A stretch of DNA of 25,107 nucleotides from Anaerohalosphaeraceae bacterium (GCA_050309605.1 JBNRMN010000085.1:1-25107), one strand, 5' to 3'; positions 1 through 23,422 are shown, counted from the first letter of the stretch. A program made the numbers and translations. The notes: generated by a model from the sequence alone, not told the origin.

Positions 1-63
1 AAATCACTGTCGCTGCAGATATAGAGGGTGAGACCTCATTAACCTTTTTTAGGAGATTTCCGA

Positions 64-1908
64 ATGCAAAAAACAGACACAGGCCCTCCCGTATTAATCC
101 AGTTTCCGACCGCTCAGGTGCTGGCCAGCCAGCGACTGCCCGCCCTCGAAATCGTCGCCTACACAGGCGGGTTTATGACGGTGCCGGGCTGGGGGCCGCT
201 GTGTATCGACCTGAAGGGCCTTGAGGCCGGACAGGTAGCGGTGCTGGCCGACCACGACGCCAAGCAGTCCGGCGTGGTCGGTCACGGCACTGCCTCGGTC
301 GAAGGCGGCAGGTTGGTGGTGCGAGGCCTTATGAGCGCCGACAGCGAAGCGGCGCGCGAGGTGCTCAAGGCCGCCAAGAACGGTTTTCCCTGGCAAGCGT
401 CCGTTGGGGTCGAGGTTCTGGATTCTGATCGCCTGCGCCCGGGACAGGCGATTGACTTGAACGGCCGCCATCTGGTTTGTCCGGATGGTGGTGCCGTTCG
501 GGTTACGCGCGGCAAGCTGCGCGAGGTCAGCATCACGGCGCTGGGCTGTGACGATGCGACCGCTGTACAGATTACTGCAATGAAAGTTCAAGGAGACAAT
601 GTTATGGAACAGACAGTAGAAACACCGGAAGTCAAAACCGACGACCTGCAGGCCGAGTGCAAGCGGGTTGCTAATATTCGCAACCTGTGCGGCGACCGCT
701 ATCCGGAGATTCAGGCCAAAGCCATCGATAGCGGCTGGGACGAAAACCGTACCGAACTGGAAATCCTGCGGGCCTCGCGCCCTGCGGCTCCGGGCGTGTT
801 TATCCGGGCGACGCATACGCCCAACAGCAACGTCCTCGAAGCGGCGCTGCTGATGCGGATGGGTCGGTCGGAGTTGGCCGAGAAAAATCTCGGTGCGATG
901 GCCTTGGAGCAGGCCGACCGGATGGGGGTCACCAACCTCATCGATGTTTGCCGGGCGGCCCTGTACGCCGACGGTCAGCCGATTCCCAACAACCGGATGG
1001 AACTGGTCAAGGCGGCCTTGAGTACCTACTCGTTGCCGGTGGCGCTGGGCAATGTGGCCAACAAGGTGCTGCTGGACGCCTACGCCGAGACGCCTGCGAC
1101 ATGGCGGACGTTCTGTGCAGTACGCAGCGTCAGCGACTTTAAGACCAACACGGTCATTCGCCCGACGTTTACCGGCCAGCTTGAGGAGATTGCCAAAGGC
1201 GGCGAGTTCAAACACGGTAGCGTGGACGAGGCGATGGTGCAGTATGCCATCGACACGTTCGGCAAAATGTTGAGCATCGACCGTCGCGACATCATCAACG
1301 ACGATTTGAGCCTGTTTGAGGACACGGCCGCCTCGCTGGGCCGAGCGGCGATGCGTCGGGTCAGCGATTTGGTCTATCACGTGCTGCTGGCCAACGCCGA
1401 CGACTTTTTCTCGCTGGACAATAACAACCTGCTGACCGGCGGACCGAGCGTCTTGAGCATCGACGCCTTGAGCGAGGCGATTGCACTGCTCCGCACCCAG
1501 CGGGATAAGGAAGGCAATGACCTTGACCTCAAGCCTTCGGTGCTGCTGGTCAGCCCGGAACTGGAAAGCACGGCCCGGGCGCTGCTGGAAAGCGAGTATA
1601 TTCAGGCACAGGTCGAAGGTCCGACGGGCAATTCGCTCCGCAAAGCCGTCCGGCTTGAGGTCGAGCCGCGGTTGAGCAACGATGTCAAGTTCCCGGCGAC
1701 CGCCTCGAAAAAGCAGTGGTTCCTGTTTGCCTCGCCGAGCAACATGCCACAAATCGTCGCCTTCCTCAACGGCCGTCAGTCGCCGACGACGGAGTTTTTC
1801 GGTCTGGACCACGACGTCAACCGCCTGGCCGTCGCCTGGCGTGTCTATCACGACTTCGGTACGGCGATGTGCGACCCGCGTGCTGCCGTTCGCAGCGACG
1901 GCGAATAA
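64..1908 (+). CDS. Phage prohead protease-major capsid protein fusion (Mu-like gpT-type / HK97-fold capsid domain, Planctomycete phage type)
   Basis: N-terminal protease-like motifs AYTGG, DHD, GFPWQASVG and LREVS. C-terminal capsid motifs VANKVLL, SVSDFK, GEFKHG, TFGKMLSIDRRDIINDDL, AFLNGRQSP and YHDFG. AGGAG RBS upstream of ATG 64. Confidence 0.88.
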   Translation: MQKTDTGPPVLIQFPTAQVLASQRLPALEIVAYTGGFMTVPGWGPLCIDLKGLEAGQVAVLADHDAKQSGVVGHGTASVEGGRLVVRGLMSADSEAAREVLKAAKNGFPWQASVGVEVLDSDRLRPGQAIDLNGRHLVCPDGGAVRVTRGKLREVSITALGCDDATAVQITAMKVQGDNVMEQTVETPEVKTDDLQAECKRVANIRNLCGDRYPEIQAKAIDSGWDENRTELEILRASRPAAPGVFIRATHTPNSNVLEAALLMRMGRSELAEKNLGAMALEQADRMGVTNLIDVCRAALYADGQPIPNNRMELVKAALSTYSLPVALGNVANKVLLDAYAETPATWRTFCAVRSVSDFKTNTVIRPTFTGQLEEIAKGGEFKHGSVDEAMVQYAIDTFGKMLSIDRRDIINDDLSLFEDTAASLGRAAMRRVSDLVYHVLLANADDFFSLDNNNLLTGGPSVLSIDALSEAIALLRTQRDKEGNDLDLKPSVLLVSPELESTARALLESEYIQAQVEGPTGNSLRKAVRLEVEPRLSNDVKFPATASKKQWFLFASPSNMPQIVAFLNGRQSPTTEFFGLDHDVNRLAVAWRVYHDFGTAMCDPRAAVRSDGE

Positions 1909-1935
1909 GTGTCTGATGGGGGTACGTTATCCCTT

Positions 1936-1990
1936 GGATGGCGGGGGTTTTTGTCCTTTACCCCGCCATCCCATTTGTTTAATTTTATTT
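1936..1990 (+). terminator. Probable intrinsic terminator or hairpin after the capsid gene
   Basis: GGATGGCGGGG (1936-1946) and CCCCGCCATCC (1961-1971) form an 11-bp perfect stem, followed by T-rich sequence. Confidence 0.6.
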
Positions 1991-2005
1991 TCACGGGAGG
2001 CGTGT

Positions 2006-2161
2006 ATGGTCACCACAGAATGTCCCACAGCGAAAATCGGCAAGTACCGCATCAATGTCCAACCGTCCGCAGAAGAGCCGCCACAGGCCAACCAGCGCGT
2101 CGAGGCGTTGGCCCAGTGGCTGCTGGCCCAGTGGACCAAAGAGCAGATTGAGAGGAATTAG
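2006..2161 (+). CDS. Small hypothetical protein (51 aa, MVTTECPTAKIGKYRINVQ...), coupled to the helicase gene
   Basis: GGGAGG RBS at 1995-2000, ATG at 2006. Its stop TAG abuts the ATG at 2162. It is the C-terminal part of track ORF 1682..2161. Confidence 0.6.
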   Translation: MVTTECPTAKIGKYRINVQPSAEEPPQANQRVEALAQWLLAQWTKEQIERN

Positions 2162-3859
2162 ATGGCAGCGCCCAAGCTCCTTAGCAGCGACGGGATGCTC
2201 TGGCCGTGGCCGACCGATTATGACGGCCGCTATATTTGCCTGTCGGCCGAGCGGATGTATCGCAGTGGCTTTTTGAAATCGGCCCATGCCGCGCAGCATC
2301 TCATCATCGACAATGATAACCCCAAAGACGACATCCACCGACGGCTCAAGCTCAACTGGGCATGGGAGCAGCGGCGTCTGTGTCGGGATGCGTTCAACAA
2401 TAAAAAACTTCGGCGACTGGAAATCGACGCCTACCATACCGACCAGCCTGCGCGGTTGAACCACTATCGCAGCCAAAGCAGCCATCCGGTGCGTCTGGCG
2501 TTCCGGCTGGCCTATTGGCGGGGTCGGGTCCACGCGCTCGAATATATCAAGCAGTCGTACTTCGATGCGGGATTTCCCGAGCACAGCGGCCATCGGAAAT
2601 GGGGCTATTTCCACGAGAGCATGGTCATCCCGTGGGCCAGGAAGGTCGCCGACTGGGCCAACAATCCGCTGGACGGAAAACTCTACCTGCCGCCTGACCT
2701 GATACACCAAGCCCGGCAGATTGCCGAACGTGAGCGGAAATGGAAACCGCCTGCGCCAGTGGCCAAACCGAAGCCAGCGGCGATGTCGGCAGCGGTCGCA
2801 GCGCCCAAAACCATCACGCCCGCACCGCTGCCGGCGTCACCTGCCGAGATTATCACCATCTCGCTGGCTGACGTCGAGGGCAAGGAGATACAGTGGTTCT
2901 GGCCCAACCGCATCCCGGCCGGAATGCTGACGCTCTTGGTGGGCAATCCCGGGGTGGGTAAATCGTTTCTGACGATGTACATCTGCGCGATAGTCTCGAC
3001 GGGTCGCGACTGGCCGGATGACAAAAACACGCTCGCCCCCGGCTCGGTGCTCTTGTTCAGCGATGAAGAGAGCTTGGAATATGCCATCAAGCCGCGGCTG
3101 CAGTCACACGGGGCCGATTGCTCTAAAATCTTTGCCGTCCCGCACATCCGATGCGCTGACGGTCATCCCGAGCCATTCACCATCGACGAGCATATTCAGC
3201 TGCTGCGTGAAAAGCTCCAGAAGATGCCCGATTGCCGGGTCATCATCTTTGACCCGATTACGGCGTATCTGGGGGCCGTCAACGCCAACAACAACGCCGA
3301 GGTGCGGGGCGCACTGGTCGGCCTGCAGGGCTTGGCGCAGGAGCGGAACGTGACCATTCTGGGCATCAACCATTTTTCCAAAAAAGCCGAGCTGGATGCG
3401 ATTCACCGGATTCTGGGGTCGACGGGATTTGTGGCGGCCGCACGCGCGGTCTGGGCGGTGATTCAGGAAAAGCCGGACGAACACAATCCCGACCCCGACC
3501 CGCCTCGCCTGCTCATCCCGGTCAAGAGCAACTACAGCATCGCACCGACGACGCTGCAGTTTCAGATTATCAATAAACAGGTGGTCTTTGACAAATCGTC
3601 ACAGCGGGTGGACATCGACTCGATTCTGCAGCAGACCAAAAAGAAAGGCGGCCGGCAGTCCAACAAGAAAGATGCCATCGCCGATTGGCTCAACGAGCGA
3701 GTCGGCACCGAACCCGTGCTGGCCGATGAACTGCAGGTCGAGGCGGAAAGCAAAGGGCTGACGTGGAGTTATGTCCAGAAGGTGGCAAACGAGATAGGGA
3801 TTGTCAAAACCAAATCGGCCGAGCATGGCGGGAAATCATTGTGGGCGTGCGGTGAATGA
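2162..3859 (+). CDS. AAA_25/RepA-like (RecA-fold SF4-type) replicative helicase with unrecognised N-terminal domain
   Basis: Walker A GNPGVGKS, Walker B VIIFDP, ILGINHFSKK, GSTGFVAAAR and KSN motifs. Pro/Ala-rich linker around aa 195-230. Short helical C-terminal domain. Confidence 0.82.
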   Translation: MAAPKLLSSDGMLWPWPTDYDGRYICLSAERMYRSGFLKSAHAAQHLIIDNDNPKDDIHRRLKLNWAWEQRRLCRDAFNNKKLRRLEIDAYHTDQPARLNHYRSQSSHPVRLAFRLAYWRGRVHALEYIKQSYFDAGFPEHSGHRKWGYFHESMVIPWARKVADWANNPLDGKLYLPPDLIHQARQIAERERKWKPPAPVAKPKPAAMSAAVAAPKTITPAPLPASPAEIITISLADVEGKEIQWFWPNRIPAGMLTLLVGNPGVGKSFLTMYICAIVSTGRDWPDDKNTLAPGSVLLFSDEESLEYAIKPRLQSHGADCSKIFAVPHIRCADGHPEPFTIDEHIQLLREKLQKMPDCRVIIFDPITAYLGAVNANNNAEVRGALVGLQGLAQERNVTILGINHFSKKAELDAIHRILGSTGFVAAARAVWAVIQEKPDEHNPDPDPPRLLIPVKSNYSIAPTTLQFQIINKQVVFDKSSQRVDIDSILQQTKKKGGRQSNKKDAIADWLNERVGTEPVLADELQVEAESKGLTWSYVQKVANEIGIVKTKSAEHGGKSLWACGE

Positions 3860-3885
3860 GCAGGATATACTAAGAGAGTATTATT

Positions 3886-3947
3886 ATAAGTTGTATAAGT
3901 AGGATAAGTAGAAGATCCTCAACTTATCCTACTTATCCAAGATATCC
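3886..3947. repeat. Iteron-like 9-bp repeats arranged as an inverted repeat; putative replication origin
   Basis: ATAAGTTGT-ATAAGTAGG-ATAAGTAGA (3886-3912) with opposing copies on the other strand. Perfect 15-bp IR ATAAGTAGGATAAGT (3895-3909) / ACTTATCCTACTTAT (3922-3936). AT-rich, directly after the helicase gene. Confidence 0.65.
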
Positions 3948-4001
3948 GACTCATACACTTACATACATCCTGATTAATTCGCAAAAGACGACGGCGATTA
4001 T

Positions 4002-4052
4002 GGTTCCTTCCGGGTAAAACAGGCAGGAGACTCCGCCGGGAACAATCACCAT
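4002..4052 (+). other. Candidate cos-like packaging signal
   Basis: GGTTCCTTCCGG (4002-4013) resembles the lambda cosQ region GGGTCCTTTCCGG and is followed by the GC-rich CTCCGCCGGGAAC. Intergenic, downstream of the replication module. Confidence 0.35.
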
Positions 4053-4107
4053 CCCAGAAAGAGTTAATTTTGGGCGGGGCATTTTTGCCGTAACGCGCAG
4101 GGGCGCT

Positions 4108-4287
4108 ATGTGGACACGAAGCTCATTACTCCAATTGGCCTGGCAGTGCTATGGCGACCATCGCGGCTGCTACCGCATGCGCTGCGCCCGCTGCGGGACG
4201 CGCTTTTTCGCATCGCGGCCCAACGCCCGCTATTGCCGCAACGCCTGTCGGCAATGGGCGTACCGTCAGCGGCGAAAATTGCCATAA
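4108..4287 (+). CDS. 59-aa zinc-finger microprotein (CxxC...YCxxxCR; CGNR-like)
   Basis: Hand translation: MWTRSSLLQLAWQCYGDHRGCYRMRCARCGTRFFASRPNARYCRNACRQWAYRQRRKLP*. Below the ORF-track size cut-off. Confidence 0.65.
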   Translation: MWTRSSLLQLAWQCYGDHRGCYRMRCARCGTRFFASRPNARYCRNACRQWAYRQRRKLP

Positions 4288-4405
4288 AAATAGTGCATAT
4301 TTATCAATAATTCCGGCCTAATACGCTTGGCTTCTGGTGGGGTTTATGGCCCTATAGGGACGTTATTAAAGACAAAAAAACGCCACTATTCAGGAGACAA
4401 AACAA

Positions 4406-4894
4406 ATGGAACTGACGGACGAAATTATCGACATGACCTACAAATTCGCACACACCTACCTGCGGCGCATCGGACGCACCGACATCGACCACAACGACCT
4501 TGCCCACGACGCGATGGTCAAGATTGCAAAGGCATCCGAGGTGGAGCCCCGGTTTCTGCGGCACCGCGTCTGGTTGGATATCAAAAGCGTGTTTTTTGAT
4601 TTTTACACCAACGCGACCACCCGCAAACACAACGTGCTGCTGGACGCGGTTCACGCCGAGTTCGATATGGAAACATTCGACCCGGATACGGTAACCGCCA
4701 AAGATGAATTTATCCGGGCACTGAAGATTGTATTTCGGGCGCAACCGACCCAATACGAAATTCTCGTCCTGCTTTTGAGTGGAAAGACCATCAAGGAGAT
4801 TGCGCAAATGCGCGGCACCACCACGAACGCGGTAGATGAATTGAAACAGAAAGCCCGAAAAGAAATCGCAGCGATCCTTGGCATCGCCGCATAG
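4406..4894 (+). CDS. ECF sigma-70-like / LuxR-type HTH regulator
   Basis: Region-2-like DHNDLAHDAMVKI and region-4 HTH EILVLLLSGKTIKEIAQMRGTTTNAVDELKQKARKEI. CAGGAG RBS at 4391. Confidence 0.7.
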   Translation: MELTDEIIDMTYKFAHTYLRRIGRTDIDHNDLAHDAMVKIAKASEVEPRFLRHRVWLDIKSVFFDFYTNATTRKHNVLLDAVHAEFDMETFDPDTVTAKDEFIRALKIVFRAQPTQYEILVLLLSGKTIKEIAQMRGTTTNAVDELKQKARKEIAAILGIAA

Positions 4895-4911
4895 ACAGAA
4901 AGGAATTCACC

Positions 4912-6699
4912 ATGGCATCCAAAAAACACATCAAGGCGGTCGGCTATGCCCGACGCAGCACCGACCTGCAGGAGCGGTCGATTCCCGACCAGAAGGCGTA
5001 CATCGAAAAATGGGCCCAGCAGAATGGCTACCGCATCCTCCGCTGGTACGTCGATGACGCCATCAGCGGCACCAGCACCAAGGGACGGATGGCGTTTGAG
5101 CGGATGATTGAGACCGCCGAGAACGGCCGGGATTTCGATACCATCCTCTGCTATGACATCAGCCGTTTTTCACGGGGCGGCACCAACGAGACGGGGTACT
5201 ATTTGCATCGGCTTGAGAAAGTAGGTGTCAACGCCATCTTCCCTGCCGACGGGATTCCTGACGGCGACGAGGGCGAACTCTTGCAAGGCGTCAAATCCTG
5301 GCAAGCCAAACAATACACGGTCAAATTGTCGCGGGATGTGATTCGGGGGTACATTTCGACGGTCACCATTCGACACAGTGCGGTGGGCGGCATTGCGCCC
5401 TATGGGTATGACAAGCAGCACCAGACCGCCAACGGTCAGATACTGCGGACGTTCCGCTGGATGGCCGATGGTCGCAAACAGGAATTCGGACCCGACGGCA
5501 AGCTGGTACGCATCTTGGAAAAGAGCGAATTTGTCAAGAAGGCCAAAAGCGATATTGTCCGGCTGGTGCCCAGCGATCCGGAGCGGGTCAAAACCGTCCA
5601 GCGGATTTTCAGCCTTTATCTGTCTGGTCGTGGAGCTGCCCATATCGCTTCTATTCTCAATCGGGATGGCATTCCGAGCTATACCGGAGTCAAGTGGGTC
5701 AGTCGCCAAATTCGAGGGGTCTTGGACAATCCCGTCTACAAAGGCGCATTGGTCTGGAACCGACGCACACTGGGGCGCTTCAATGGGGTTGACGGCGATG
5801 GCAATCTTCGTCCGAAGCGTAATTTTCTGGCGGCCAATAATCCGCAAGAAGACTGGTATCTGGTCGAGAATGTTCACGAACCGCTGGTCTCGCCCGATGA
5901 CTTTGAAAAAGCCCAGCAGGAAAAGAAAAATCGCTGCGATATGGGTGGCCGTGCCAAATCCACAGGCCGCGCCTTGTTGTCGGGATTGATTGTCTGTTCC
6001 CATTGCAACCAATCGTTTCATAAGACATACGTGGAGTGTAAATCCGGGGGTGTACCAACGCGATACTATTACTATGCCGATGCGGGGTATAAGCGGGGTG
6101 GTAAATTCCTCTGCAAGCAGACGAACGTCCCAATGGAACCACTGAACGCCTGGGTGCTGCATCACGTCAAACGCATCCTCTTGGGCGACCACAAGACCGT
6201 TGAGGAGGCGGTCGCCGCATTTATCAAAAAACTCCGGTTGGGCAAAGAGACGGCCGACGATACGGCCAACATCCAAAAAGAACTGGACGCGGTCAACCGC
6301 CGCATCAAGGCGACGCTGGCAATGCTGGCCGATCCGAGTTTTGAGGGACTGGATGAGATAAAAGCCACCCTGTCCGAATTGAAACTGCGTCGCGACCGAC
6401 TGCAGAAAAAGAATAATACCCCCAAACCCGCTGTCGCCACCTTCCGGGAATCCGATTTACGGGATTGGGCAACGGAACATATCGCCGCCATCGACCGCCT
6501 CATCGCACACCCCACCGCCACCGTCGAGGATAGAAAACTCGTCCACGCCTTTATCCACCGCATTGAAATCGACCCCTACGCCAAACAGGGAACACTTTAC
6601 CTTCACAAAGATGTGTTTGAAATCTTCAAAAACAATTTTTGCAGTTGGGGGAGTATGCAGGATTACCGCGGCGCGCTCAAGATGAAAGGCGAAGCATAA
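4912..6699 (+). CDS. Large serine recombinase (resolvase catalytic domain + recombinase domain + Zn ribbon/coiled coil)
   Basis: AVGYARRST with catalytic Ser, DDAISG, DISRFSR, PYGY, LDNPVYKG, HEPLVSPDDFEKAQ, LLSGLIVCSHC and a coiled-coil segment. Confidence 0.93.
   Translation: MASKKHIKAVGYARRSTDLQERSIPDQKAYIEKWAQQNGYRILRWYVDDAISGTSTKGRMAFERMIETAENGRDFDTILCYDISRFSRGGTNETGYYLHRLEKVGVNAIFPADGIPDGDEGELLQGVKSWQAKQYTVKLSRDVIRGYISTVTIRHSAVGGIAPYGYDKQHQTANGQILRTFRWMADGRKQEFGPDGKLVRILEKSEFVKKAKSDIVRLVPSDPERVKTVQRIFSLYLSGRGAAHIASILNRDGIPSYTGVKWVSRQIRGVLDNPVYKGALVWNRRTLGRFNGVDGDGNLRPKRNFLAANNPQEDWYLVENVHEPLVSPDDFEKAQQEKKNRCDMGGRAKSTGRALLSGLIVCSHCNQSFHKTYVECKSGGVPTRYYYYADAGYKRGGKFLCKQTNVPMEPLNAWVLHHVKRILLGDHKTVEEAVAAFIKKLRLGKETADDTANIQKELDAVNRRIKATLAMLADPSFEGLDEIKATLSELKLRRDRLQKKNNTPKPAVATFRESDLRDWATEHIAAIDRLIAHPTATVEDRKLVHAFIHRIEIDPYAKQGTLYLHKDVFEIFKNNFCSWGSMQDYRGALKMKGEA
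6655..6699 (+). pseudogene. 3' remnant of a prophage major capsid gene fused to the LSR C-terminus; putative attR junction near 6645-6660
   Basis: MQDYRGALKMKGE aligns ungapped with this window's capsid end MCDPRAAVRSDGE (6/13 identical plus V/L and R/K). It is followed, after a TA moron, by DUF2190, the gene that normally follows the capsid gene. Confidence 0.7.
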
Positions 6700-6712
6700 A
6701 CAGCCGGATGGG

Positions 6713-6979
6713 TCATTCGTAATGTGACCACATCCGCAGCACTTTGACAATACGTTCTTCGGTTAAGACCTGATAGACCAAGCGATGCTGAATGTTGATC
6801 CTGCGGGAGTACAGCCCCGTCAAATTGCCAAGCAGTTTTTCGTATGGCGGATAGGACGAAAAGGGGTCTTTTTCAATAAGTGCCAAAAGTTTTCTCACTT
6901 TCGGTGCTAATCCGGCAGCGGCGATTTTATTGGCATCTTTGACAGCGGCTTTGGTCAGGATGACTTCGTATCGGGCCAT
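6713..6979 (-). CDS. yoeB: Txe/YoeB family mRNA interferase toxin
   Basis: PPYEKLLGNLTGLYSRRINIQHRLVYQV...MWSHYE. Start at ATG 6979 (MARYEV), overlapping the antitoxin end. Confidence 0.92.
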   Translation of the reverse strand: MARYEVILTKAAVKDANKIAAAGLAPKVRKLLALIEKDPFSSYPPYEKLLGNLTGLYSRRINIQHRLVYQVLTEERIVKVLRMWSHYE

Positions 6980-7221
6980 GCAAACTCCGAAAGCGGGGTG
7001 CATTCTTCAGGTGATGCCTGACGGCCTTCAAGCAAGCTCTGGGTCATGCCCGGAATCGATTGAAGGTAAAGAGTCTCCTGAATGGCGGCGTAGTCTTCCT
7101 CTGAGATCAGGATACCTGCCCCGTTCTTGCTGGTAATGCAGATCGGCTCGTGCGACTCCTGAACCTGGCTAAGGAGCTTATAGAGCTGTTTTCGAGCGTT
7201 TGTGGCGGTAATGGTCGTCAT
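6955..7221 (-). CDS. yefM: Phd/YefM family antitoxin
   Basis: TATNARKQLYKLLSQVQESHEPICITSKNGAGILISEEDYAAIQETLYLQSIPGM; lies upstream of yoeB. Confidence 0.92.
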   Translation of the reverse strand: MTTITATNARKQLYKLLSQVQESHEPICITSKNGAGILISEEDYAAIQETLYLQSIPGMTQSLLEGRQASPEECTPLSEFAWPDTKSS

Positions 7222-7262
7222 AAAACCTATCCAGAAGTTAGGGTTGAAGCTTTACAGTAAAC

Positions 7263-7278
7263 GTACGCTATAGCGTAC
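7263..7278. promoter_or_regulatory. Probable YefM-YoeB autoregulatory operator
   Basis: Perfect 16-bp palindrome GTACGCTATAGCGTAC about 40 bp upstream of yefM. The GTAC half-sites resemble the TGTACA core of YefM operators. Confidence 0.65.
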
Positions 7279-7323
7279 ATAAAGTTCGCGTGAAAGTCAA
7301 CTAAAATCTATGAAGGAAAAATT

Positions 7324-7665
7324 ATGGCAACAGCACGATTTATTCATGACGGTGATGCGATTGATTACACCCCCGGCGCAGCGGTTAACGCCGGCGATGT
7401 GGTGGTTCAGGGCGATCTGATCGGGATTGCCAAGCTGGACATGGCCGCCGGTCAACTGGGGGCGCTGGCGGTAACGGGCGTCTTTGACGTTCCCAAGGCC
7501 ACCGGCACGGGCACCGACATTGCGGCCGGAGCCAAGCTCTATTGGAACACATCCAATCAACAGGCCACCGATGATGACGGCAGCGGCTTCAATAAGTATC
7601 TGGGCAAGGCCGTACGTGCAGCGGCCACCACAGATGCGACGGTGCGGGTACGACTGGAACAATAA
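7324..7665 (+). CDS. DUF2190 family phage head decoration/cement protein
   Basis: MATARFIHDGDAIDYTP...GDVVVQGDLIGIAKLD...GALAVTGVFDVPK...GAKLYWN...YLGKAV...VRVRL. Confidence 0.88.
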   Translation: MATARFIHDGDAIDYTPGAAVNAGDVVVQGDLIGIAKLDMAAGQLGALAVTGVFDVPKATGTGTDIAAGAKLYWNTSNQQATDDDGSGFNKYLGKAVRAAATTDATVRVRLEQ

Positions 7666-7670
7666 CGGGT

Positions 7671-7734
7671 GTGGGGCTTGGGGCGTGAGGCTTGAGGTTG
7701 ACACTGCCTCCCCCAAGCCCCACGCCTCAAGCCC
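7671..7734. repeat. Heptamer-repeat stem-loop (G[GA]GGC[TG]T units)
   Basis: GTGGGGC-TTGGGGC-GTGAGGC-TTGAGGT followed by complementary CCCAAGC-CCCACGC-CTCAAGC. Confidence 0.7.
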
Positions 7735-7742
7735 GAATTGAT

Positions 7743-8096
7743 ATGAGCAATTTACTGAACAACGGCCTGGACTGGCTGGAGCAGAAGCTCCTGGGTTTCT
7801 GCTCCAGTCCGGTCGCGTATCGGCGAAACAGCCAAACCGTAACTGTTAATGCCGTCTTCGGCAAAACCGACTATGAGGTGGACAATGAGTCGGGTCTGCG
7901 TGTGGGCAGTTTTGTGTGGGATTTTCTGATGGATGCAGAGGCTTTGGCCATGACGCCGGAGATTGGTGACATCGTGGTGGTTAACAACAAACAATTTGAA
8001 GTGATGGCTCTGTCCGGTCAGGGCTGCTGGCGCTGGACGGGGCCGAACCAAAAAACCTATCGTATCCACACTCAGGAGATTGGCAGTGACCTGTAA
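7743..8096 (+). CDS. Putative phage head-tail joining/head-closure protein
   Basis: MSNLLNNGLDWLEQK...VAYRR...FGKTDYEV...WDFL...PEIGDIV...WRW...YRIHT; lies after DUF2190. Start taken at ATG 7743. Confidence 0.6.
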   Translation: MSNLLNNGLDWLEQKLLGFCSSPVAYRRNSQTVTVNAVFGKTDYEVDNESGLRVGSFVWDFLMDAEALAMTPEIGDIVVVNNKQFEVMALSGQGCWRWTGPNQKTYRIHTQEIGSDL

Positions 8097-8322
8097 AGAA
8101 CAATATGAAAACGTCTGCAAGGACGAGTTTGCCGGGCTGCATGATAAGCTGGACAAGATGGACGAAGCCATCCGCGGCAACGGCAAGCCGGGGATTCAGG
8201 TCCGCCTGGACCGGCTGGAGCAGGAACGGCTCAGCCGCAGCAAGGTGGCGTGGTTTGTTATCGGCTGTATCACGACGTTGGCCGGTTCGATTGCCACATC
8301 GTGGATTGTGAGGACGCTATGA
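8086..8322 (+). CDS. Small phage membrane protein (coiled coil + one C-terminal TM helix)
   Basis: LHDKLDKMDEAIRGNGKPGIQVRLDRLEQ then hydrophobic VAWFVIGCITTLAGSIATSWIV. AGGAG at 8074-8078 favours the GTG start at 8086. Confidence 0.7.
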   Translation: MTCKEQYENVCKDEFAGLHDKLDKMDEAIRGNGKPGIQVRLDRLEQERLSRSKVAWFVIGCITTLAGSIATSWIVRTL

Positions 8323-8741
8323 AAATCGCCATTGATATTGCTGATGCGGTCGCTGCCGAGCTGGCGAACTTGCCTTTGACCATTCATCGCCGTGTCCTGC
8401 CGGAATACGAGTTGGCCGAACTGAAGAGCCTGACGGTTACCGTGGTGCCCAAGTCGGTCGAGATCGCCTATGTCACACGGGATGCGACCGGTTATGAGGT
8501 GGCGATAGACATCGGGATTCAGCAAAAGATCGGTAAGGACACCGATGCGGAGGTCACACGGCTAAGCGACGTTGTCAGTGAGATCGTATCGTTCCTGAAC
8601 CGTCGTTCGTTGCCGACGCTCAAGGCGCGGTTTAAGGCCCTCGTCAACGAGCCGGTCTATGCCCCGGAAATGCTCCGTGAAAAACGGCTGTTTTTGTCCG
8701 TGGTCACCGTAACCTATCTTTGTCAGGAGGTGGTACGATAA
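8319..8741 (+). CDS. Putative phage tail terminator / neck protein; last codons altered by the IS110 insertion
   Basis: ATGA overlap with the previous gene. IADAVAAEL, RRVLPEYEL, IDIGIQQK, EPVYAPE and FLSVVTVTY. The terminal VVR* is read from IS sequence. Confidence 0.6.
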   Translation: MKIAIDIADAVAAELANLPLTIHRRVLPEYELAELKSLTVTVVPKSVEIAYVTRDATGYEVAIDIGIQQKIGKDTDAEVTRLSDVVSEIVSFLNRRSLPTLKARFKALVNEPVYAPEMLREKRLFLSVVTVTYLCQEVVR

Positions 8742-8745
8742 ATCC

Positions 8746-9015
8746 TGAATGAGGTTGAGCCGATATTTTTTCTTTCTTTTTTCCCCGGTTTGGGGTGAGG
8801 GGAAAAAAGCGAAAAAATATCTTCTTGACAGCATTCGTTGGCGTTTTAACTTCGATTTTACGAATCGGAGTAGAATAGGTTTCAGGCTGCATGATTCGTA
8901 TGGGGCATCGACCTCGAACAGGAGAATATTCAGACCTGTAACCGAACCGGCCACAATAAGGCATTGCGACCTTGTATAGGAGAATGGTGGACGCCGACAG
9001 TGAAGTCTACTCCAG
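8746..9015 (+). ncRNA. Candidate IS110 bridge RNA
   Basis: Structured left end: hairpin 8762-8821, enclosing stem 8867-8874/9006-9013, and two internal arms (8878-8943, 8948-8996). The arms contain CAGGAG (equal to the left target flank) and ATAGGAG (equal to the right-end donor sequence). RNA ends are approximate. Confidence 0.6.
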
Positions 9016-9050
9016 ACAATGGAAACCATGAATGTTTAGGAGAACGCACA

Positions 9051-10064
9051 ATGAGTTATCTTGGAGTAGACTTGCACACGAACAGTTTTACGGTGTGCCA
9101 TCGGACCAAGCAGGGAAAGCAGCGTATTGCAACGTATGCCATCGACCGGATGGATCGGTTTGGCAAGACCTTGCGGAAACGGGACGACGTGGCCGTGGAA
9201 GCGACCGGCAATACGGCGTGGTTTGTCGAGCAGATTCGGTCGTCTGTCAGAAAAGTGATTGTGGTGGATCCGAACCAGTTTAAGGTGATTCGTCAGTCGG
9301 TAAAAAAGACGGACAAACACGACGCCAGGGCATTGGCGTTATTTTTGAGCAAAGGCATGTTGCCTGAGGCACGTATGAAAGAAAAAAAGAACACCCAGTT
9401 GCATTCATTGGCCGCCACGCGGGACAAGCTGGTCAAACAGCGAACGGCGTTGGCAAACAAGGTGCATAATGTCCTGAACAGTTACGGCCTGAAATGGAAA
9501 AAAGAGACACTGACAACAGAAAAGGGTCTCAAGAGTATTTTGTCCTTTGACTGGGACACAATTGTACGGGTCGAGCTGGAGGTGCTGACCGATCAGATTC
9601 GGTCGCTGACCCGAAGCATCAAGCGTTTGGATGCGGACATTGCTGAACACGGCAAGGTGCTGAAAGGCCATGAAAACCTCAGCAGTATCAAGGGTATCGG
9701 CGAAAAGTCGGCCACCGTGCTGCTCAGTGTCATCGGCAATGTGAAGGATTTTGCCAATGAAGACAAACTGGCGTCGTATTTCGGGATTGTGCCGCGCGTC
9801 AAGGATTCCAATGAGATCGTACGGCATGGGCGGATCACCAAACACGGCTCGACCCTGGCTCGCACGACATTGGTGCAATGCACCTTGTCGGCCAAACGGT
9901 ACAGTCCCTATTTGAGGCAGTATTATGAACGGATCAAGCGAACACGCGGCAGCGGCAAAGCGATCATTGCCACCGCACGGAAACTGCTTGGGATCATCTA
10001 CAAAACCCTGACACATGACTGGGTGTTTGAGGACTTCCCAAACTTTGTGATCGCAACACGTTAG
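9051..10064 (+). CDS. IS110 family transposase/recombinase (DEDD RuvC-like + Transposase_20)
   Basis: YLGVDLH, VAVEATG, KKTDKHDA, SIKGIG, YFGIVPRVKDS, GRITKHG and AIIATARKL. AGGAG RBS before ATG 9051. Confidence 0.95.
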   Translation: MSYLGVDLHTNSFTVCHRTKQGKQRIATYAIDRMDRFGKTLRKRDDVAVEATGNTAWFVEQIRSSVRKVIVVDPNQFKVIRQSVKKTDKHDARALALFLSKGMLPEARMKEKKNTQLHSLAATRDKLVKQRTALANKVHNVLNSYGLKWKKETLTTEKGLKSILSFDWDTIVRVELEVLTDQIRSLTRSIKRLDADIAEHGKVLKGHENLSSIKGIGEKSATVLLSVIGNVKDFANEDKLASYFGIVPRVKDSNEIVRHGRITKHGSTLARTTLVQCTLSAKRYSPYLRQYYERIKRTRGSGKAIIATARKLLGIIYKTLTHDWVFEDFPNFVIATR

Positions 10065-10115
10065 CGTAAAAATAATTGAAAATTGGAGTAGACTTTTATC
10101 ATAGGAGACCACCAT

Positions 10116-13100
10116 ATGTTCCATCTGACTTTACGAGTGCCTTGGCATGACCGCCAATGGGATGGTTGTGTTTGTGACAAACCGTTACAGAACTCCTTTT
10201 GCGTTGCGCTTGACCGTATCCGTGTGGAGCGAGACGAAATAGCGGAAGACAAAATCAAGGGGCAGCACTTTCGTGATTTGAGTCAGCATGAACTGCCTGC
10301 CTGTAAAGCCGAGTCCGGATACTTCATGAGTCCACACTCATGGTTACGCGAGTTTAAACATCCCTATAGCCAAAACAAAAAAGCTCAGGCAACCCACGGC
10401 AATTTGGAGAAAACGAGCATTCCTGTCCCTGAGTATTCAACATTTGCTGTTCCCTTTGCATGGATGCTGCGAAAAAATCAGAAGCAGCTTGAGGCGGGCC
10501 TCCCCAACCCACTGCCACCCGACGAGAAACCTCCCTTCGAGACTCCTTGGGTATTCGGGCGTTCCCGACAGGAGGCGATTTCTGATCTGATGTTCGGGCG
10601 GATCACGGATGATAAGTCACTGGTGTTCTTTTACACCAAGGAAGGACATCCTCTTGGCGACAATCTACCACGCCTAGTAATCGGCGTTGGGCGAGTGTTG
10701 AGAGTTGGGAAATTGTTGTACTATGAATCTTCGGGTAAGACCACCTACCCTCTGTGGGACCGCATCATCCGCCACTCAATCCGAACTGATGGCCATGACG
10801 GCTTTCTTCTGCCGTATCACGACTATCTTAAACTTACGGGAGACCCCGAGGAAGACGCTCGCAGACGTGAACTCCTTCTGGAGATAGCTGTAGCCGTCGA
10901 TTGGGGACACATGAAGGAGTTCTCGCACGCGGCAGAATTGGCTCCGCCTGGCACCGCTCTTTCTACGCTGACTCGATGCCTCGCTGCAGTGCGTCTTATC
11001 CGAAAGCACGGAATTGCGGAAGGCCCCTGGGATCGGCATGAGGAATGGCTTAATCAGCAAATCGCGGATGTGTGGCAAGATCGCGGTGCATTTCCGGGTA
11101 CTGGGTCCGCCCTTGAAGCACTAGGAATGAGGTTGGGCACTTCTCTGTACTTCGAATTGCTGGCCATGGGGGCCGTGCAACCGAGCGATAACCCGTGGAC
11201 CGTGGTAGATGCAATCTTACGCGGCAAAAAAAATCCTCCCCAGACAGCGTATTCCGGTGACATCAAAGCCATTCGCTCGACATGGGAAGGGCTATCCGCC
11301 GAACGACGAGCTCTACTGGAACTCCTTTCTCGTTTCGACTTGACTCCTGGGCAGGCACAGCGGTGGTTCGACCCAAACAAAAGAGCTAATGCTACTCATG
11401 CTCAGATAACGGACAGGGAAATACTGGAAAACCCGTATCGTACAGTGGAGGCAGACCTGGGTGATCATGAAAACGTGCCAGTAAGCATAGGCATGGTCGA
11501 CCGCGGCCTCATGCCAGATAGTTCAATTGCGGCAAAGCACCCAGTACCTGCACCTTCATCGGTTGATTCTCCATTAGATAAGCGACGTGTTCGAGCTGCC
11601 TTAGTCTCTATCCTTAAATCGGCAGCCAATGAGGGGGACGCCCTCATGGGCATTAGCGAAATTTTAGAGCGGATGCCGAAAATCGACTTGTCTCAGCCCT
11701 GCAATGTTGGAATGGATTGGTTAAATGCGAATAAAGGTTTTCTCTCAGAGGTCGTAGAGACGGTCGATATCACTGTCAAATCCGGAAAGACAGAGAAACT
11801 AATTCCATCATTACAACTCACTGAATATCGCAAACAAGAAGATAGGCTGCGTAACGTCCTTCATGCCCGCGCGGAAAGAAAAACGGTCACAGTGAAAACT
11901 AGTTGGGCGGCTTTACTCAAAAAGGCCATTCAAGATGCTGGAGGGGCATACGACCCAAAGAATCCCCGTCACACCGCTGCACTTAAAGAGCAGACAGACG
12001 CACTGGCCTGCATCATTGATAGAAAGCTGACCGTCCTGACCGGAAAAGCCGGTACAGGCAAGACATCTGTGCTGGGTGCATTGTTGCTTTGCGATGATAT
12101 TATCAAGGACGGCATTCTGTTATTAGCCCCGACGGGTAAAGCACGTGTGCGACTTGGTCGCGCTACAAACGCTGAAGCAATGACGGTTGCCCAGTTCTTG
12201 AACAGTCTCGGACGGTATGATGGAGTCAGGCAAAAACCTCTGCTTGTCGGCAAGGACAAGTACAGGAAGGAGAAAACAGTTGTTATTGATGAAGCATCGA
12301 TGCTGACAATGGATACCCTCTTGGCCGTATTGGAAGCATTAGACTTGGCACATGTCCAGCGACTGATCCTTGTTGGCGATCCCAATCAATTACCACCCAT
12401 TGGGGTCGGAAGACCCTTTGCGGATTTAGTTGCTAGTTTTGAAAGTGCATTGGCGTCAAATGACCCTTTAATTCAGAATCGCGGATTAGCAATGGCTCGT
12501 CTATCTGTTGAAGTGCGAGCTGTGGCTGGTGCACCTTCTGGCACGCTTCGCCTGGCATCGTGGTTCACACGCGAGCCACAAATGGTGGATGCAGACCGCA
12601 TTCTAAGCGACATAGAAATGAATGGGGCTTTTAATGATTTAGAACTCTGTTTTTGGAAAACTCCCGAGGAACTTCGCTCAAGATTCATGGAGCAATTCAA
12701 GAAGCAATTTGGGATAAATAATGAGAAGGACGTTGATAATTTTAACCTCGCTTTGGGTTTCAACCCTGAAGGATGGATGCCATTTGATGCCCCAGAAGGT
12801 GCAGAGAACTTCCAGATACTCTCTCCTGTGCGTATGCACCCATACGGTGTGCGTGAGATCAACAGATGGGTACAGCGATCCTTTCGAATGGATAAGCTGC
12901 AAAAGGCGAGAGCATTTCGGGGAACAAGTCTGGGTGATGAGGAAATTGTCGTTAGCGATAAAGTTATTCAGCTCGATAACGGAACCAGATATGCTTATGA
13001 CGGAAATGGCCAATTGGAAGTATATCTTGCCAACGGAGAAATCGGAGTTGTGTGCCCTGGCAAGGCAGGATGGGTAAATGTGGTTTTCAGCGGAAGAAAG

Positions 13101-13855: not shown

Positions 13856-14350
13856 ATGAGCAAACCATTCAATTTAAAAGTTAAGAAGCAAAAAACTACT
13901 GCGCAATCAAAAGTTCCTATTATTTGTGCTGTCCACAAGGAATTGAAAGCATGCTTTAATGGATGGAAAGGTCAAGCTAAACGACGACGAAAAAAATTCC
14001 ATTTGACCTTCCAAGACATACAGCAGATATGGATAGCGCAGAACGGGCATTGTGCTGTTACTGGTCAAGCCATGACTTTTACAAAGAAAGACGTCAATAA
14101 AGTTTCTCTCGATAGAGTGGATTCAAGTGGTGATTACAGTTACAACAATGTGCGGATGGTGGCCGTGAAGGTAAATTATGCTCGACATACATATTCCGAT
14201 GATGATCTTCGGACAATTCTTAAGGATATGGAACATATCGATAGGTTGCGTAAGGCCTTGAGTGGCGGAAAGAACTGGTTCAAAAGAGCTGTTTTGCTGC
14301 CGGAGTACATTAAAATTTTTGGCCGACCGAATTCCGCTAACCGTCGATGA
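13856..14350 (+). CDS. HNH/His-Me finger-like endonuclease
   Basis: QNGHCAVTG...VSLDRVDSSGDYSYNNVRMVAVKVN pattern; basic N-terminus. Confidence 0.65.
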   Translation: MSKPFNLKVKKQKTTAQSKVPIICAVHKELKACFNGWKGQAKRRRKKFHLTFQDIQQIWIAQNGHCAVTGQAMTFTKKDVNKVSLDRVDSSGDYSYNNVRMVAVKVNYARHTYSDDDLRTILKDMEHIDRLRKALSGGKNWFKRAVLLPEYIKIFGRPNSANRR

Positions 14351-14383: not shown

Positions 14384-15091
14384 CTATAGAACGATTCCGG
14401 TAACCACTAAGCCGAGAGCGTACCCCAGACCAATCAAGTTTGCCAATGTGGGAGGTAGATCCCGCTCAAGCCCGATGCGGTGGACATCTACCCCCCTGAC
14501 CCTCATGGCCAGCCACAGGTCGTCAAGCTTAACCATCACGCCGACGAGCAGCGGAACCAGGAGTGCAGATAGGTTACGAGGAAGATGCTTCATCCGCTGT
14601 AGGCCCCGTTCCCGGCCCAGCCCGCGAGCACGCTGTGCGACTATGATACGACGTGTCTCCTCGAAGATGACAGGCAGAAAGCGTAGCCCCATGCCAATGG
14701 CCAGACAGAATGTCTTCGGCAACCGCAGCCACCGCAATCCCGCAACGATATCGTAAGGACGAGTCGCGACGAAGAACGCGATACAGATACCCCCAACCGC
14801 CATCCACCTCGCAACCGCAACGCCAGCAGCCAAGACTCCTGCTTTGGTGGGGTCGCCCGCGACGGCCAGCCCGAAGAAGACCATGAGAACAACTACGAAC
14901 ATCGGAATCGCCCGGAGATATGGGGAACGGTCCACTCGGCACAATACCAATGCCGCGACAGCCGAGATGAGGAGCCACCCAACGAGAACCACACTGTTCG
15001 TAAAGGCGGCAATAGAATACGCTATCAGAAGGGATAGTTTTACCCTATAGTCGGTTTCGCCAACAACGCGATGGAAGACGCCACTCACCAC
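14384..15091 (-). CDS. ECF transporter transmembrane T component (EcfT/CbiQ family)
   Basis: Several TM helices, LRFLPVIFEETRRIIVAQRARG and AMRVRG (the two Ala-Arg-Gly-type motifs). Confidence 0.9.
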   Translation of the reverse strand: MVSGVFHRVVGETDYRVKLSLLIAYSIAAFTNSVVLVGWLLISAVAALVLCRVDRSPYLRAIPMFVVVLMVFFGLAVAGDPTKAGVLAAGVAVARWMAVGGICIAFFVATRPYDIVAGLRWLRLPKTFCLAIGMGLRFLPVIFEETRRIIVAQRARGLGRERGLQRMKHLPRNLSALLVPLLVGVMVKLDDLWLAMRVRGVDVHRIGLERDLPPTLANLIGLGYALGLVVTGIVL

Positions 15092-23253: not shown

Positions 23254-23422
23254 AGATAAATGGCACAAATCCAATTGTTCGATCAATCGAAGAAAGGAGG
23301 TTGACGTCAAAGACATTGAAATGTGGAGTTAAGTATGATCCGTAGGAAAGTGATTGTTTGGGTAGGGATACATTAAAATGTGGGTATTTGCCCGAAACTT
23401 AAATTTTTTGGAGGTTTGAAAG

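Follow-up and report, generated by a model that had tools for sequence, protein, structure and literature searches.

The window, that is, the whole stretch of 25,107 nt from an Anaerohalosphaeraceae genome, holds part of a small mobile element, equipped with a capsid gene of its own and a large serine recombinase (LSR), which is lodged in the final codons of the capsid gene of a resident prophage in this planctomycete. Positions 1-6662 are very likely the right-hand portion of an integrated satellite-type element, a member of a family widespread in Planctomycetota, within its helper's capsid gene. Sequence comparison documents the integration, both junctions, the empty site, a family-wide capsid-to-LSR module and a tropism for phage genes. 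The composite in the source genome appears rearranged, and the element may be stranded in it.

The recombinase frame ends in a capsid tail

The LSR frame (4912-6699, + strand) shows the domain order of a large serine recombinase, with Resolvase (PF00239) at residues 9-144, Recombinase (PF07508) at 223-341 and Zn_ribbon_recom (PF13408) at 355-420. Serine recombinases share the N-terminal catalytic motif Y-x-R-x-S-T-x-x-Q; the LSR reads GYARRSTDLQ at this place, and in an alignment of 36 homologs R14, R15, S16, T17 and D18 show at least 90% conservation. The native part of the protein extends through the crossover core (4912-6662) and has no stop of its own before it. The frame terminates in MQDYRGALKMKGEA and a stop at 6655-6699, whereas the capsid frame at 64-1908 terminates in MCDPRAAVRSDGE; the two tails align without gaps with 6 of 13 positions identical, and blastn of the window against the whole genome found no DNA repeat between them. 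The resemblance, as first noticed in an earlier sequence-only reading of this DNA, was thus reproduced in all its parts.

A profile HMM was built from the C-terminal 40 residues of 8 intact capsids of the helper type from other loci and run against all 63,772 six-frame ORF ends of the genome (at least 30 aa). The LSR end ranked 5th (E 0.0089, HMM positions 26-40 of 40), preceded only by four genuine capsid ends, namely those of the element's own capsid, C69, C86 and the fragment on contig C91 described below. It ranked 5th again with a 126-sequence HMM (E 0.13). Judged by these rankings, the match between LSR and capsid tails is more than chance would produce. Capsids with such a tail do exist: the intact helper-type capsids terminate in ..DFGVALQDPRGGVKAKGEA or ..DFGVREQDHRAALLMKGQA, in line with the ending that the sequence-only reading had given for Planctomycete prophages. 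The right junction, attR, has its element side at 6636-6662, comprising an 18-nt P arm (6636-6653), 3 bases and the 6-bp core GCAGGA (6657-6662). It is followed by the final 11 codons and the stop of the interrupted helper capsid gene (B' arm, 6663-6699, + strand), in frame with the LSR ORF.

The left junction and the empty site

The sequence-only reading had placed attL to the left of the window and had suggested looking for a second, 3'-truncated capsid gene ending near DFG. Both are present on contig C91 of the same genome, which begins within a helper-type capsid gene (Phage_capsid_4 profile positions 199-249 of 262). This fragment reads ..GYIDFGVREQD and continues into 22 element-encoded residues and a stop, so that past the core the conserved capsid tail is replaced by the unrelated SFLPQLQKRKFRWVKRKIEEVK. 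The fragment is 60-67% identical to the second capsids of loci L079 and L051, and 93-98% identical at the protein level to the capsids of congeners. Beyond it lie homologs of the left-arm genes of a relative, L007; the five left-arm ORFs on C91 had no match in PADLOC, Pfam or PHROGs. The P arm matches the reverse complement of the C91 P' arm at 17 of 18 positions, and the arms stand 16 nt apart with GCAGGA central. The attP predicted in this way consists of inverted half-sites with no long repeat and contains no replacement for the 3' end of the interrupted gene; attL, attR and the empty site have the 6-bp core in common. In the assembly the window remains unjoined to C91, and the gap between them includes a two-copy repeat of ~300 bp.

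An empty site was reconstructed from G299, a genome of the same genus without an LSR of this family. On the reverse complement of G299:C95, positions 9437-9611 correspond to reverse-complemented C91 (rcC91) 1-175, and positions 9606-11007 to window 6657-8071, the latter with 80% DNA identity. G299:C95 holds one intact capsid-TA-cement-HTJ locus, and the two alignments overlap there by exactly the 6-nt core, which is the only overlap between the halves. Four intact alleles were found, in G299 and G284. In attL, attR and the empty site alike the position lies within the capsid gene, which is followed by the cement and head-tail joining genes.

The element's own capsid gene and the two tails

The gene at 64-1908 (+ strand) codes for an intact protease-major capsid fusion of 614 aa (Phage_capsid_4 profile positions 6-261 of 262; phrog_4523, 'major head and protease protein', E 1.4e-77). 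Among the matches listed it has at least 119 homologs of ~615 aa, 118 of 119 with a D-x-R..KGEA-type tail, and it is 33-38% identical to the helper-type capsids. In 50 of 58 related loci the LSR has a full-length homolog of this gene 2.4-5.2 kb upstream, and the gene is for this reason assigned to the element; by comparison with its relatives, its tail is the native one of its own clade. Together with the fragment on C91 and the empty site, this module bears out the model favoured in the sequence-only reading, in which the helper capsid gene is broken and the element carries a divergent protease-capsid of its own.

Two other readings of the tails were considered. From the window alone, the topologically simplest is that the element spans only ~1870-6655, was inserted in the 64-1908 capsid gene and supplied it with a replacement C-terminus, and the 6/13 alignment between the two tails speaks for it. 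However, the nearest homologs of this capsid (70-74% identity) end in ..MCDPRAAVRS.., so the tail is native and has not been replaced; the gene belongs to the conserved capsid-to-LSR module, and C91 carries the true 5' half of the interrupted gene, which codes for a different capsid, only 33-38% identical. We therefore reject this reading, to which we give almost no weight. It is just as hard to believe that the capsid-like tail is the native conserved C-terminus of the LSR, or a chance likeness, with the C91 match an artefact of binning or assembly. The tail is shared by 23 of 119 LSR homologs, which alone could suggest a native conserved end, but the homologs part ways directly past ..STR...G[DE], and others continue from the same point into the 3' part of a methylase, terminase, SU10 capsid or tape-measure gene. 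Moreover, from the core onward the window is collinear with the intact 3' end of a congener's capsid gene and the genes downstream of it, and the near identity of the C91 fragment to congeners' capsids does not fit an artefact.

Other features of the element

The gene content given in the sequence-only reading (protease-capsid, helicase, sigma-like gene, LSR, TA, DUF2190 and head-tail gene) agrees with Pfam and PHROG matches, and portal, terminase and tail-tube families are absent from 64-7665, as that reading had it. The capsid gene is followed by a primase-helicase-type replication gene of the AAA_25 (RepA/DnaB-like) type at 2162-3859 (+ strand; PF13481 E 4.6e-30; PHROG primase/helicase families), and AAA_25 genes occupy the same position in L019, L051, L070 and L007. 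An AT-rich block at about 3880-3960, with ATAAGT/ACTTAT repeats and a 30-nt inverted repeat, is a candidate replication origin because it follows the replicase gene. Contigs from runs X3 and X4 part at this repeat block, with loose ends at 3917. A small ORF of 59 aa with a CxxC..CxxC pattern (4108-4287, + strand) is conserved in related elements: tblastn of L007 9023-9400 gave 55% over 95 aa at window 4000-4284, and it also matches L099 and L100. It is a candidate DNA-binding or directionality factor by inference; no directionality factor was otherwise identified in the element. The frame at 4110-4310 differs from this conserved ORF and is probably spurious, and its lack of hits in Pfam, PHROGs and PADLOC is uninformative. 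A sigma-70 region-4-like regulator (4406-4894, + strand; PF08281 E 1.1e-4; phrog_1740) precedes the LSR, and shows 54% protein and 74% DNA identity to a gene in a helper-like prophage region of G299:C55, from the same genus. AlpA and tyrosine-integrase families were absent among the ORFs scanned in the window and C91.

At the left end, positions 1-127 (+ strand) hold the capsid gene's 5' leader and first 21 codons and form the right end of the ~300-bp two-copy repeat, where the assembly forks. They match the reverse-complemented end of host contig C45 exactly, with divergence at 127/128. We considered whether C45 represents the empty site of an insertion at 127/128 and dismissed it: in run X1 the repeat is a 309-nt contig of depth 26 with two exits ~15 deep each, so both exits are at full depth, and the capsid N-terminus is homologous to the N-termini of close homologs through 127/128, and is thus native across the boundary. 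The second copy is a duplicated piece of the element located beside host argG.

Helper genes and the copy in this genome

Downstream of attR the genes are those of the helper. The YoeB/ParE-type toxin and Phd/YefM antitoxin pair (6713-7221, - strand; Pfam) belongs, on comparative evidence, to the helper prophage and not to the element, and in G299:C95 a counterpart with 92-93% aa identity separates the intact capsid gene from the cement gene. It is followed on the + strand by the head-completion genes, i.e., the cement/decoration gene Phage_cement_2 (DUF2190, 7324-7665) and the head-tail joining gene (7692-8096), both with Pfam and PHROG matches, and then orf163 (8250-8741) and orf76 (8749-8979), in the same order as after the intact helper capsids of L051, L079, L095, L101, L105, G299 and G284. 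Helper synteny stops at an IS110-family transposase gene (8964-10064, + strand; PF01548, PF02371), and the tail genes that follow orf163 in L088 and L103 were unmatched further along the window. Helper portal, terminase and the capsid 5' part were not found in the genome bin, which is weak evidence of their absence because the bin is incomplete for phage regions.

One contig of run X3 bridges attR, and run X4, from another study, contains pieces at least 99% identical to the element and to the helper side. Contigs of runs X1, X3, X4 and X5 contained no excised or empty-site form, with no joints and no loose end at the core (6657-6662); such contigs drop rare variants, and a missing excised form there is not evidence against excision. 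A narrow degenerate two-arm pattern for the excised (attP) form of the subfamily matched nothing in either the JGI metagenome contigs or IMG/VR (0 each). There was no circular contig of the element and no locus of at least 6 kb with terminal direct repeats.

A family of elements in phage genes

The LSR clade (48-74% identity) has at least 8 mapped natural attB sites. Since the middle part of the present element is unassembled, the inventory of virion genes rests on bounded relatives. Relatives with both ends visible (L019, L007, L103 and L062) measure 10.5-11.3 kb. Among their scanned ORFs the capsid-protease gene is the sole structural gene recognised, and portal, terminase and tail genes were absent. 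The ORFs for these family scans were chosen by hand, as greedy longest-ORF calling put an antisense ORF over the LSR in GC-rich loci.

Seven recognised target sites lie in phage genes: three capsid genes, terL, a tape-measure gene, a ParB-methylase gene near phage modules and probably a tail gene. L103 splits the same capsid tail type as the window element, L007 interrupts a capsid gene of the SU10 type between profile positions 230 and 231, and L062 splits an SU10 capsid gene in antisense. L019 splits the ParB-methylase gene and L093 the tape-measure tail, and L051, L079 and L070 are in terL, after which come genes for portal, a second capsid, cement and head-tail joining. L008 is in a DUF899 gene, a non-phage target. 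Of the tails of 119 LSR homologs, 23 are capsid-type, so that these C-termini do repeatedly end in capsid tails, a point raised in the sequence-only reading; 21 are the C-terminal part of a methylase and 56 are unclassified. Target classes track LSR subclades, with 4 changes on the tree compared to 27-35 in the shuffles shown.

The attP form was found in L013, where P and P' are contiguous, and the same tail occurs in 3 protein clusters. In this excised state the LSR ends in a basic P'-encoded tail (..RKFRW.. or ..FAW..), and after integration its end is taken from the target: 11 residues of capsid, a methylase part of ~130 aa or a stretch of 410-470 aa from the terminase nuclease domain. The reading frames of LSR and target coincide at 6 co-oriented sites. 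As attP lies within the stop-less 3' end of the LSR gene, each integration and excision rewrites the C-terminus of the enzyme. The state-dependent C-terminus might conceivably act as a built-in switch of directionality or timing, which could partly substitute for a separate directionality factor. Because integration fuses the LSR to a helper virion protein, it could also tie excision to late translation of the helper. We think this rather unlikely; if true, the clade as a whole would amount to a natural set of self-reporting, retargetable serine integrases.

Proposed life cycle and alternatives

The element is co-oriented with the helper capsid gene and inserted 11 codons ahead of its stop. 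The integrated LSR gene, lacking a stop before the attP core, reads through into the final 11 codons of the helper capsid, which in turn loses its conserved C-terminal 11 residues and gains the 22 element-encoded ones. In the scheme we propose by analogy with the satellites known as helper-embedded PICIs (HE-PICIs), the helper capsid gene would stay altered until the recombinase excises the element precisely, and helper late transcription could reach the co-oriented element. Once excised, it may replicate using its own origin, and it would be packaged, by means of the portal, terminase and tails of the helper, in capsids made of its own capsid protein. Excision, helper dependence and packaging are all drawn from this analogy.

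A plausible, though not the most probable, alternative agrees with this scheme on the identity of the element and differs only on its present function: the element integrated in the capsid gene and the composite was later rearranged and truncated, so that clean excision or packaging is no longer possible. On C91 the left arm runs directly into what is left of a tape-measure gene, its final ~310 codons, and two distal tail genes, the IS110 gene follows orf76 with no tail genes beyond it in the window, the helper portal and terminase were missing from the bin, a duplicated piece of the element, ~300 bp long, lies beside host argG, the excised form went unseen in the run contigs, and many helpers of HE-PICIs appear truncated according to Tommasini et al. 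(PMC10111431). Against such a relic, however, the LSR, capsid and replicase frames are intact, as are both att sites with their shared core; the incomplete bin makes the absences weak evidence, and the C91 tail genes may be late genes that the element has captured and carries, as for HE-PICIs in the same report (PMC10111431). Much less probably, the element is an autonomous small temperate phage or other integrative element whose recombinase merely uses sites in prophage genes, independent of the prophage it interrupts. Helper dependence here is deduced, L008 is in a non-phage gene and nearly half of the LSR tails are unclassified, all of which such an element would allow. Nevertheless, the bounded relatives consist of capsid gene, replicase, LSR, regulators and cargo, seven recognised target sites fall in phage genes, and a virion cannot be built from capsid protein alone. 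A helper-dependent satellite remains our preferred reading.

Comparison with known systems

Like P4-like satellites, PLE and PICMI, the element is small and integrative, with a replicase, cargo/defence genes and a presumed reliance on a helper, and PLEs also use a serine recombinase. To our knowledge, P4, PLE and PICMI have no homolog of the helper's major capsid gene; their integration sites are chromosomal, whereas the planctomycete element lies inside helper genes. LSR elements that split host genes, restored on excision, include SPbeta in spsM, skin in sigK and the A118-type phages in comK. They share with the present element the LSR insertion into an ORF at a short core, with precise excision restoring the gene. 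However, their targets are developmental or competence genes of the host, and they themselves are full or defective phages, whereas the element described here targets another prophage and has no virion module.

The capsid-forming PICIs (cf-PICIs) are described as encoding all proteins for capsid formation and packaging, with only tails taken from the helper (bioRxiv 10.1101/2022.09.08.507074). The present element resembles them as a satellite with its own capsid protein, not only remodelling the helper's. In contrast to what that preprint describes, its bounded relatives have the capsid-protease as their only recognised virion gene and are embedded in helper genes; of the marks of a cf-PICI, no portal, head-tail connector or small terminase of its own was found in window 1-6662, C91 or the bounded relatives scanned.

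The closest parallel is offered by the HE-PICIs. According to Tommasini, Mageeney and Williams (2023, NAR Genom Bioinform, PMC10111431), their commonest target is the capsid gene, they carry a capsid gene of the same family as the interrupted one together with their own primase/replicase and origin, and their attP contains no replacement sequence, so that only excision mends the interrupted late gene ('regulated gene integrity'). New late-gene sites have been gained again and again within one integrase clade, with subclades matching site groups, and the helpers are often truncated (PMC10111431). Insertion into the helper capsid gene, an own capsid gene, a replicase, an origin-like block and an attP without replacement are all features of the planctomycete element as well. 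The behaviour is therefore already known, and the statement in the sequence-only reading that no described satellite family behaves in this way does not hold, as HE-PICIs, including one within a capsid gene and carrying its own, were published in 2023 (PMC10111431).

There are differences from the HE-PICIs as that source describes them. HE-PICIs use tyrosine integrases, with AlpA, in Enterobacterales; the present element uses an LSR, located at its 3' end with attP inside the stop-less 3' coding end, in Planctomycetota. Its capsid gene is a protease-capsid fusion, its regulators are sigma-like with no Bro-N network seen, and its family has further targets in SU10-type capsid genes, in a tape-measure gene and in a gene for a ParB-methylase. 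It is thus a functional analogue of HE-PICIs and a separate LSR-based lineage, not a member of the HE-PICI family. Among the papers searched, none mentions 'Planctomycetota' together with 'phage satellite', and these appear to be the first candidate phage satellites in the phylum. The clade is also of practical use: attP, attL, attR and attB can all be read from sequence, which should help in studying how serine integrases change site specificity, and the recombinase-methylase, recombinase-terminase and recombinase-capsid 'fusion proteins' of Planctomycetota MAGs represent integration junctions rather than true multidomain enzymes. Embedding in helper late genes, with the capsid gene favoured and a spare capsid gene carried along, has evolved at least twice, with unrelated recombinases and in very distant phyla, which argues for a general satellite solution and not an enterobacterial curiosity.

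Gene content of the element and its helper

The window, at 25,107 bp, is one entire contig of the 97 that make up the genome, with about 60% G+C at 128-3500 and about 50-55% in the remainder. Pfam and PHROGs profiles identify a protease-major capsid fusion gene (64-1908, 614 aa; Phage_capsid_4 profile positions 6-261 of 262 in Pfam, phrog_4523 in PHROGs), then an AAA_25 primase/helicase-like gene (2162-3859). A gene resembling sigma region 4 (4406-4894) precedes the large serine recombinase (LSR, 595 aa, 4912-6699). Next come a toxin-antitoxin pair of YoeB/ParE-Phd type, encoded on the minus strand (6713-7221), a DUF2190 cement gene (7324-7665) and a head-tail joining gene (7692-8096), which is separated by two small ORFs from an IS110 transposase (8964-10064). 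The repeat block at about 3880-3960, directly after the replicase gene, is a candidate origin, and a conserved 59-aa CxxC ORF (4108-4287) is a candidate accessory or directionality factor.

The element interrupts the capsid gene of a resident prophage

The sequence-only reading had claimed that the LSR frame, which ends in MQDYRGALKMKGEA*, carries a tail of the same type as the capsid frame at 64-1908, which ends in MCDPRAAVRSDGE*. The translations confirm this, with 6 of 13 positions identical, and no DNA repeat was found between the two tails. Among the 119 listed homologs of the 64-1908 capsid (about 615 aa, all from Planctomycetota), 118 have a D-x-R..KG[EQ]A-type tail. When an HMM built from the last 40 residues of eight intact helper-type capsids from other loci was run against the full set of 63,772 genomic ORF ends, that of the LSR ranked fifth (E 0.0089, HMM positions 26-40 of 40). 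Because only four genuine capsid ends stand above it, the likeness is both real and specific.

Two arrangements could place a capsid tail at this position. Either the element spans only about 1870-6655 and was inserted in the capsid gene at 64-1908, or it broke the capsid gene of a helper prophage and brought 64-1908 as its own, with attL lying to the left of the window. The ..MCDPRAAVRS.. ending of the 64-1908 protein recurs in its closest homologs (70-74% identity); therefore, this end is native and the shorter element is ruled out. The second arrangement, which the sequence-only reading had favoured, is supported by a helper capsid half on contig C91, a shared core, an empty site in a congener and a recurrent capsid-LSR module. 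The 3'-truncated second capsid gene that it predicted was recovered when second capsids from related loci served as tblastn queries against the genome: a 58-residue piece lies at the extreme end of C91 (8009 to 7836, minus strand). This piece is 60-67% identical to residues 653-710 of 721 of those capsids, corresponds to Phage_capsid_4 profile positions 199-249 of 262, and its ORF aligns to positions 12-29 of the capsid-tail HMM. Its frame reads ..GYIDFGVREQD and then SFLPQLQKRKFRWVKRKIEEVK*.

The attL on C91 and the attR in the window have only GCAGGA in common (C91 7842-7837, window 6657-6662). The element-side flanks form 18-nt inverted arms, 17 of 18 positions matching, 16 nt apart and with the core central, which by sequence is the expected look of a serine-integrase attP. 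Furthermore, the left-arm genes of a relative, L007, have homologs on C91 downstream of attL. At the level of sequence, these junctions demonstrate integration into the helper capsid gene. The altered ends of both reading frames follow directly: the helper capsid has lost its conserved last 11 residues and gained 22 others, and the LSR frame has no stop before the core, so that it ends in the helper's 11 codons.

Among 401 genomes sampled from the phylum, the family LSR was present in 3, including the present one; it was not found in the two same-genus genomes. The same-genus genome G299 and the same-family genome G284 each carry the helper head module twice (L175-L178; G299:C55, G299:C95, G284:C13 and G284:C4), comprising terL, portal, capsid, cement, head-tail joining gene and orf163, all with intact capsid genes. 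Both G299 contigs stop in orf163, presumably at a repeat. In G299:C95, whose capsid gene ends ..GYIDFGVREQDHRAALLMKGQA*, the empty-site allele can be reconstructed: positions 1-175 of the reverse complement of C91 align to 9437-9611 of that contig's reverse complement (87% identity) and window 6657-8071 aligns to 9606-11007 (80% identity), and the two pieces abut with an overlap of exactly the 6-nt core. Since the same toxin-antitoxin pair (92-93% aa identity) sits between the intact capsid and cement genes at this empty site, the pair belongs to the helper.

Two further matches link the element to the congener's L175 (G299:C55). The sigma-like gene (window 4396-4859) has a relative at L175 4734-5222, in the helper-type prophage region (54% aa, 74% nt), which suggests, from sequence, that helper and element have exchanged genes or share late-gene regulation. 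An intergenic stretch of the element (window 3998-4050) matches L175 229-281, upstream of a ParB-methylase gene (54 nt, 85% identity). A packaging or regulatory site common to both is one possibility, and this stretch may be what had been read earlier as a cos-like motif.

Related elements and their targets

Among the 119 listed homologs of the LSR (48-74% identity), every sequence diverges right past a conserved ..STR...G[DE]. Their tails are of capsid type in 23, the C-terminal part of an N6_N4 methylase in 21, of 'SSSHS' type in 16, P'-encoded (by an element-side att arm) in 3 and unclassified in 56. GTDB genomes, with 129 confirmed loci, and IMG/VR were scanned, and 98 loci from these scans were analysed. 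The LSR N-terminus is at family level in 91, and the upstream sequence is 5.5 kb or longer in 58. Fifty of these 58 have, on the strand of the LSR, a full-length homolog of the 64-1908 capsid whose end lies 2.4-5.2 kb upstream of the recombinase, and by this sequence context the capsid gene is assigned to the element.

Both junctions are visible in five loci. In L019 a ParB-methylase gene is split (profile 1-93 in the left part, with the LSR fused to 139-220), in L007 an SU10-type capsid gene at profile position 230/231, in L103 a capsid tail just as in the window, in L062 (of the 'SSSHS' class) an SU10 capsid gene at profile positions 52-56, antisense, and in L093 a tape-measure gene in its last ~20 codons. 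In L051, L079, L070 and many IMG/VR loci, the LSR is fused to a gpA terminase nuclease domain, followed by portal, second capsid, cement and head-tail joining genes. One relative, L008, is located in a non-phage DUF899 gene, and in L013 P and P' are contiguous, which is the attP form. Bounded elements measure 10.5-11.3 kb and, besides the capsid gene, AAA_25 and the LSR, carry sigma-like genes, with opposite-strand cargo of restriction-modification genes (L103, L070) or DUF4145 (L019); no portal, terminase or tail family was found among their scanned ORFs. On a tree of LSR cores trimmed of their tails, 4 changes account for the four labelled target classes (63 of 120 rows), compared to 27-35 in the ten shuffles shown of 200 run, a contrast that relatedness inflates. 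In L074 (10001-12901), the LSR frame enters a methylase 3' part that is seemingly interrupted directly past the HEWC motif by about 250 extra residues; our guess is an intein-like insert.

State of the element and helper in this genome

Several observations weigh against an element that still works in this genome. The window is not joined to C91, which is a separate contig. The left arm on C91 adjoins a tape-measure gene, of which the last ~310 codons are present, and two distal tail genes; either the element captured these late genes or a deletion brought them there. Helper synteny in the window ends at IS110, and helper portal and terminase genes were not found in the genome bin. A two-copy repeat of about 300 bp (window 1-127 and ~182 nt to its left, covering the capsid gene leader and first 21 codons) has both exits at full depth. 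Contigs assembled from runs of one study reproduce this arrangement, and a run of a second study contains near-identical pieces; no excised form was present in the assembled contigs of those runs, and pattern searches of JGI metagenome contigs and IMG/VR gave no matches to the attP form of this subfamily.

The second copy of the repeat (C45 33128-33254) lies beside host argG, joined to the antisense 3' end of a GLUG-motif ORF. In sequencing run X1, a contig breaks at window 6531-6533, 125 nt before the core, where depth increases from 15.1 to 18.8; there may be a minor variant that shares only the LSR gene end and the helper side. A related LSR 3' end was also seen in runs X3 and X4.

Other capsid genes occur in the genome. 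Two C-terminal ends (..DFGCDLGDPRGITKYLG[FY]AE*) open contigs C86 (1-551) and C69 (6540-7088), which have 659 bp in common at 96% identity and then diverge. By sequence, these represent a third capsid type; their 5' parts are not in the genome bin. An SU10-type major capsid gene on C33 (289410-290285), apparently uninterrupted across the matched part, is 70% identical to the gene split in L007 and points, from sequence, to another prophage.

Past 10064 the window has unrelated genes. A 1229-aa RecD/UvrD-like protein (10116-13805) aligns along its entire length to the candidate defence family PDC-S68 (1393 bits) and is followed by an HNH/endonuclease VII-like ORF (13856-14350). The minus-strand stretch 15085-20003 encodes an ABC-type double ATPase (PADLOC model mad3, E 6e-48) and then three ORFs of 189, 752 and 236 aa that matched no family, and may be another defence-island module. 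Two adjacent PEP-CTERM protein genes (23420-24003 and 24225-24811) form a direct repeat, 89% identical, and the final 127 bases are common to the end of contig C84, another assembly fork.

Proposed working and comparison with known satellites

By analogy with helper-embedded PICIs (HE-PICIs), excision would restore the helper capsid gene, possibly with the CxxC ORF product as accessory or directionality factor, and late transcription of the helper would run into the co-oriented element. Replication would start from the repeat block just past the replicase gene, and packaging would combine the element's own capsid protein, which is 33-38% identical to the helper capsid, with helper portal, terminase and tails.

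HE-PICIs were described by Tommasini, Mageeney and Williams in 2023 (PMC10111431). In that study, one PICI sits in capsid gene E of a lambdoid helper and has its own capsid gene, 491 further HE-PICIs occupy 14 late-gene sites, a single tyrosine-integrase clade serves them all, and attP is without replacement sequence. Their behaviour is the same as that of the window element. But the window element uses an LSR, and AlpA was not found in it; because the defining integrase differs, it falls outside HE-PICI membership. The literature searched, covering part of the journals, gave no report of Planctomycetota together with a phage satellite and no LSR-based case of a satellite in prophage capsid or terminase genes. 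These are probably the first satellite candidates in Planctomycetota. Their significance lies in an integrase family with many natural sites readable from sequence, in a stop-less recombinase frame whose C-terminus varies with integration state, and in convergence with HE-PICIs: the element is an LSR-based version of an already known kind, and its LSR basis is new.
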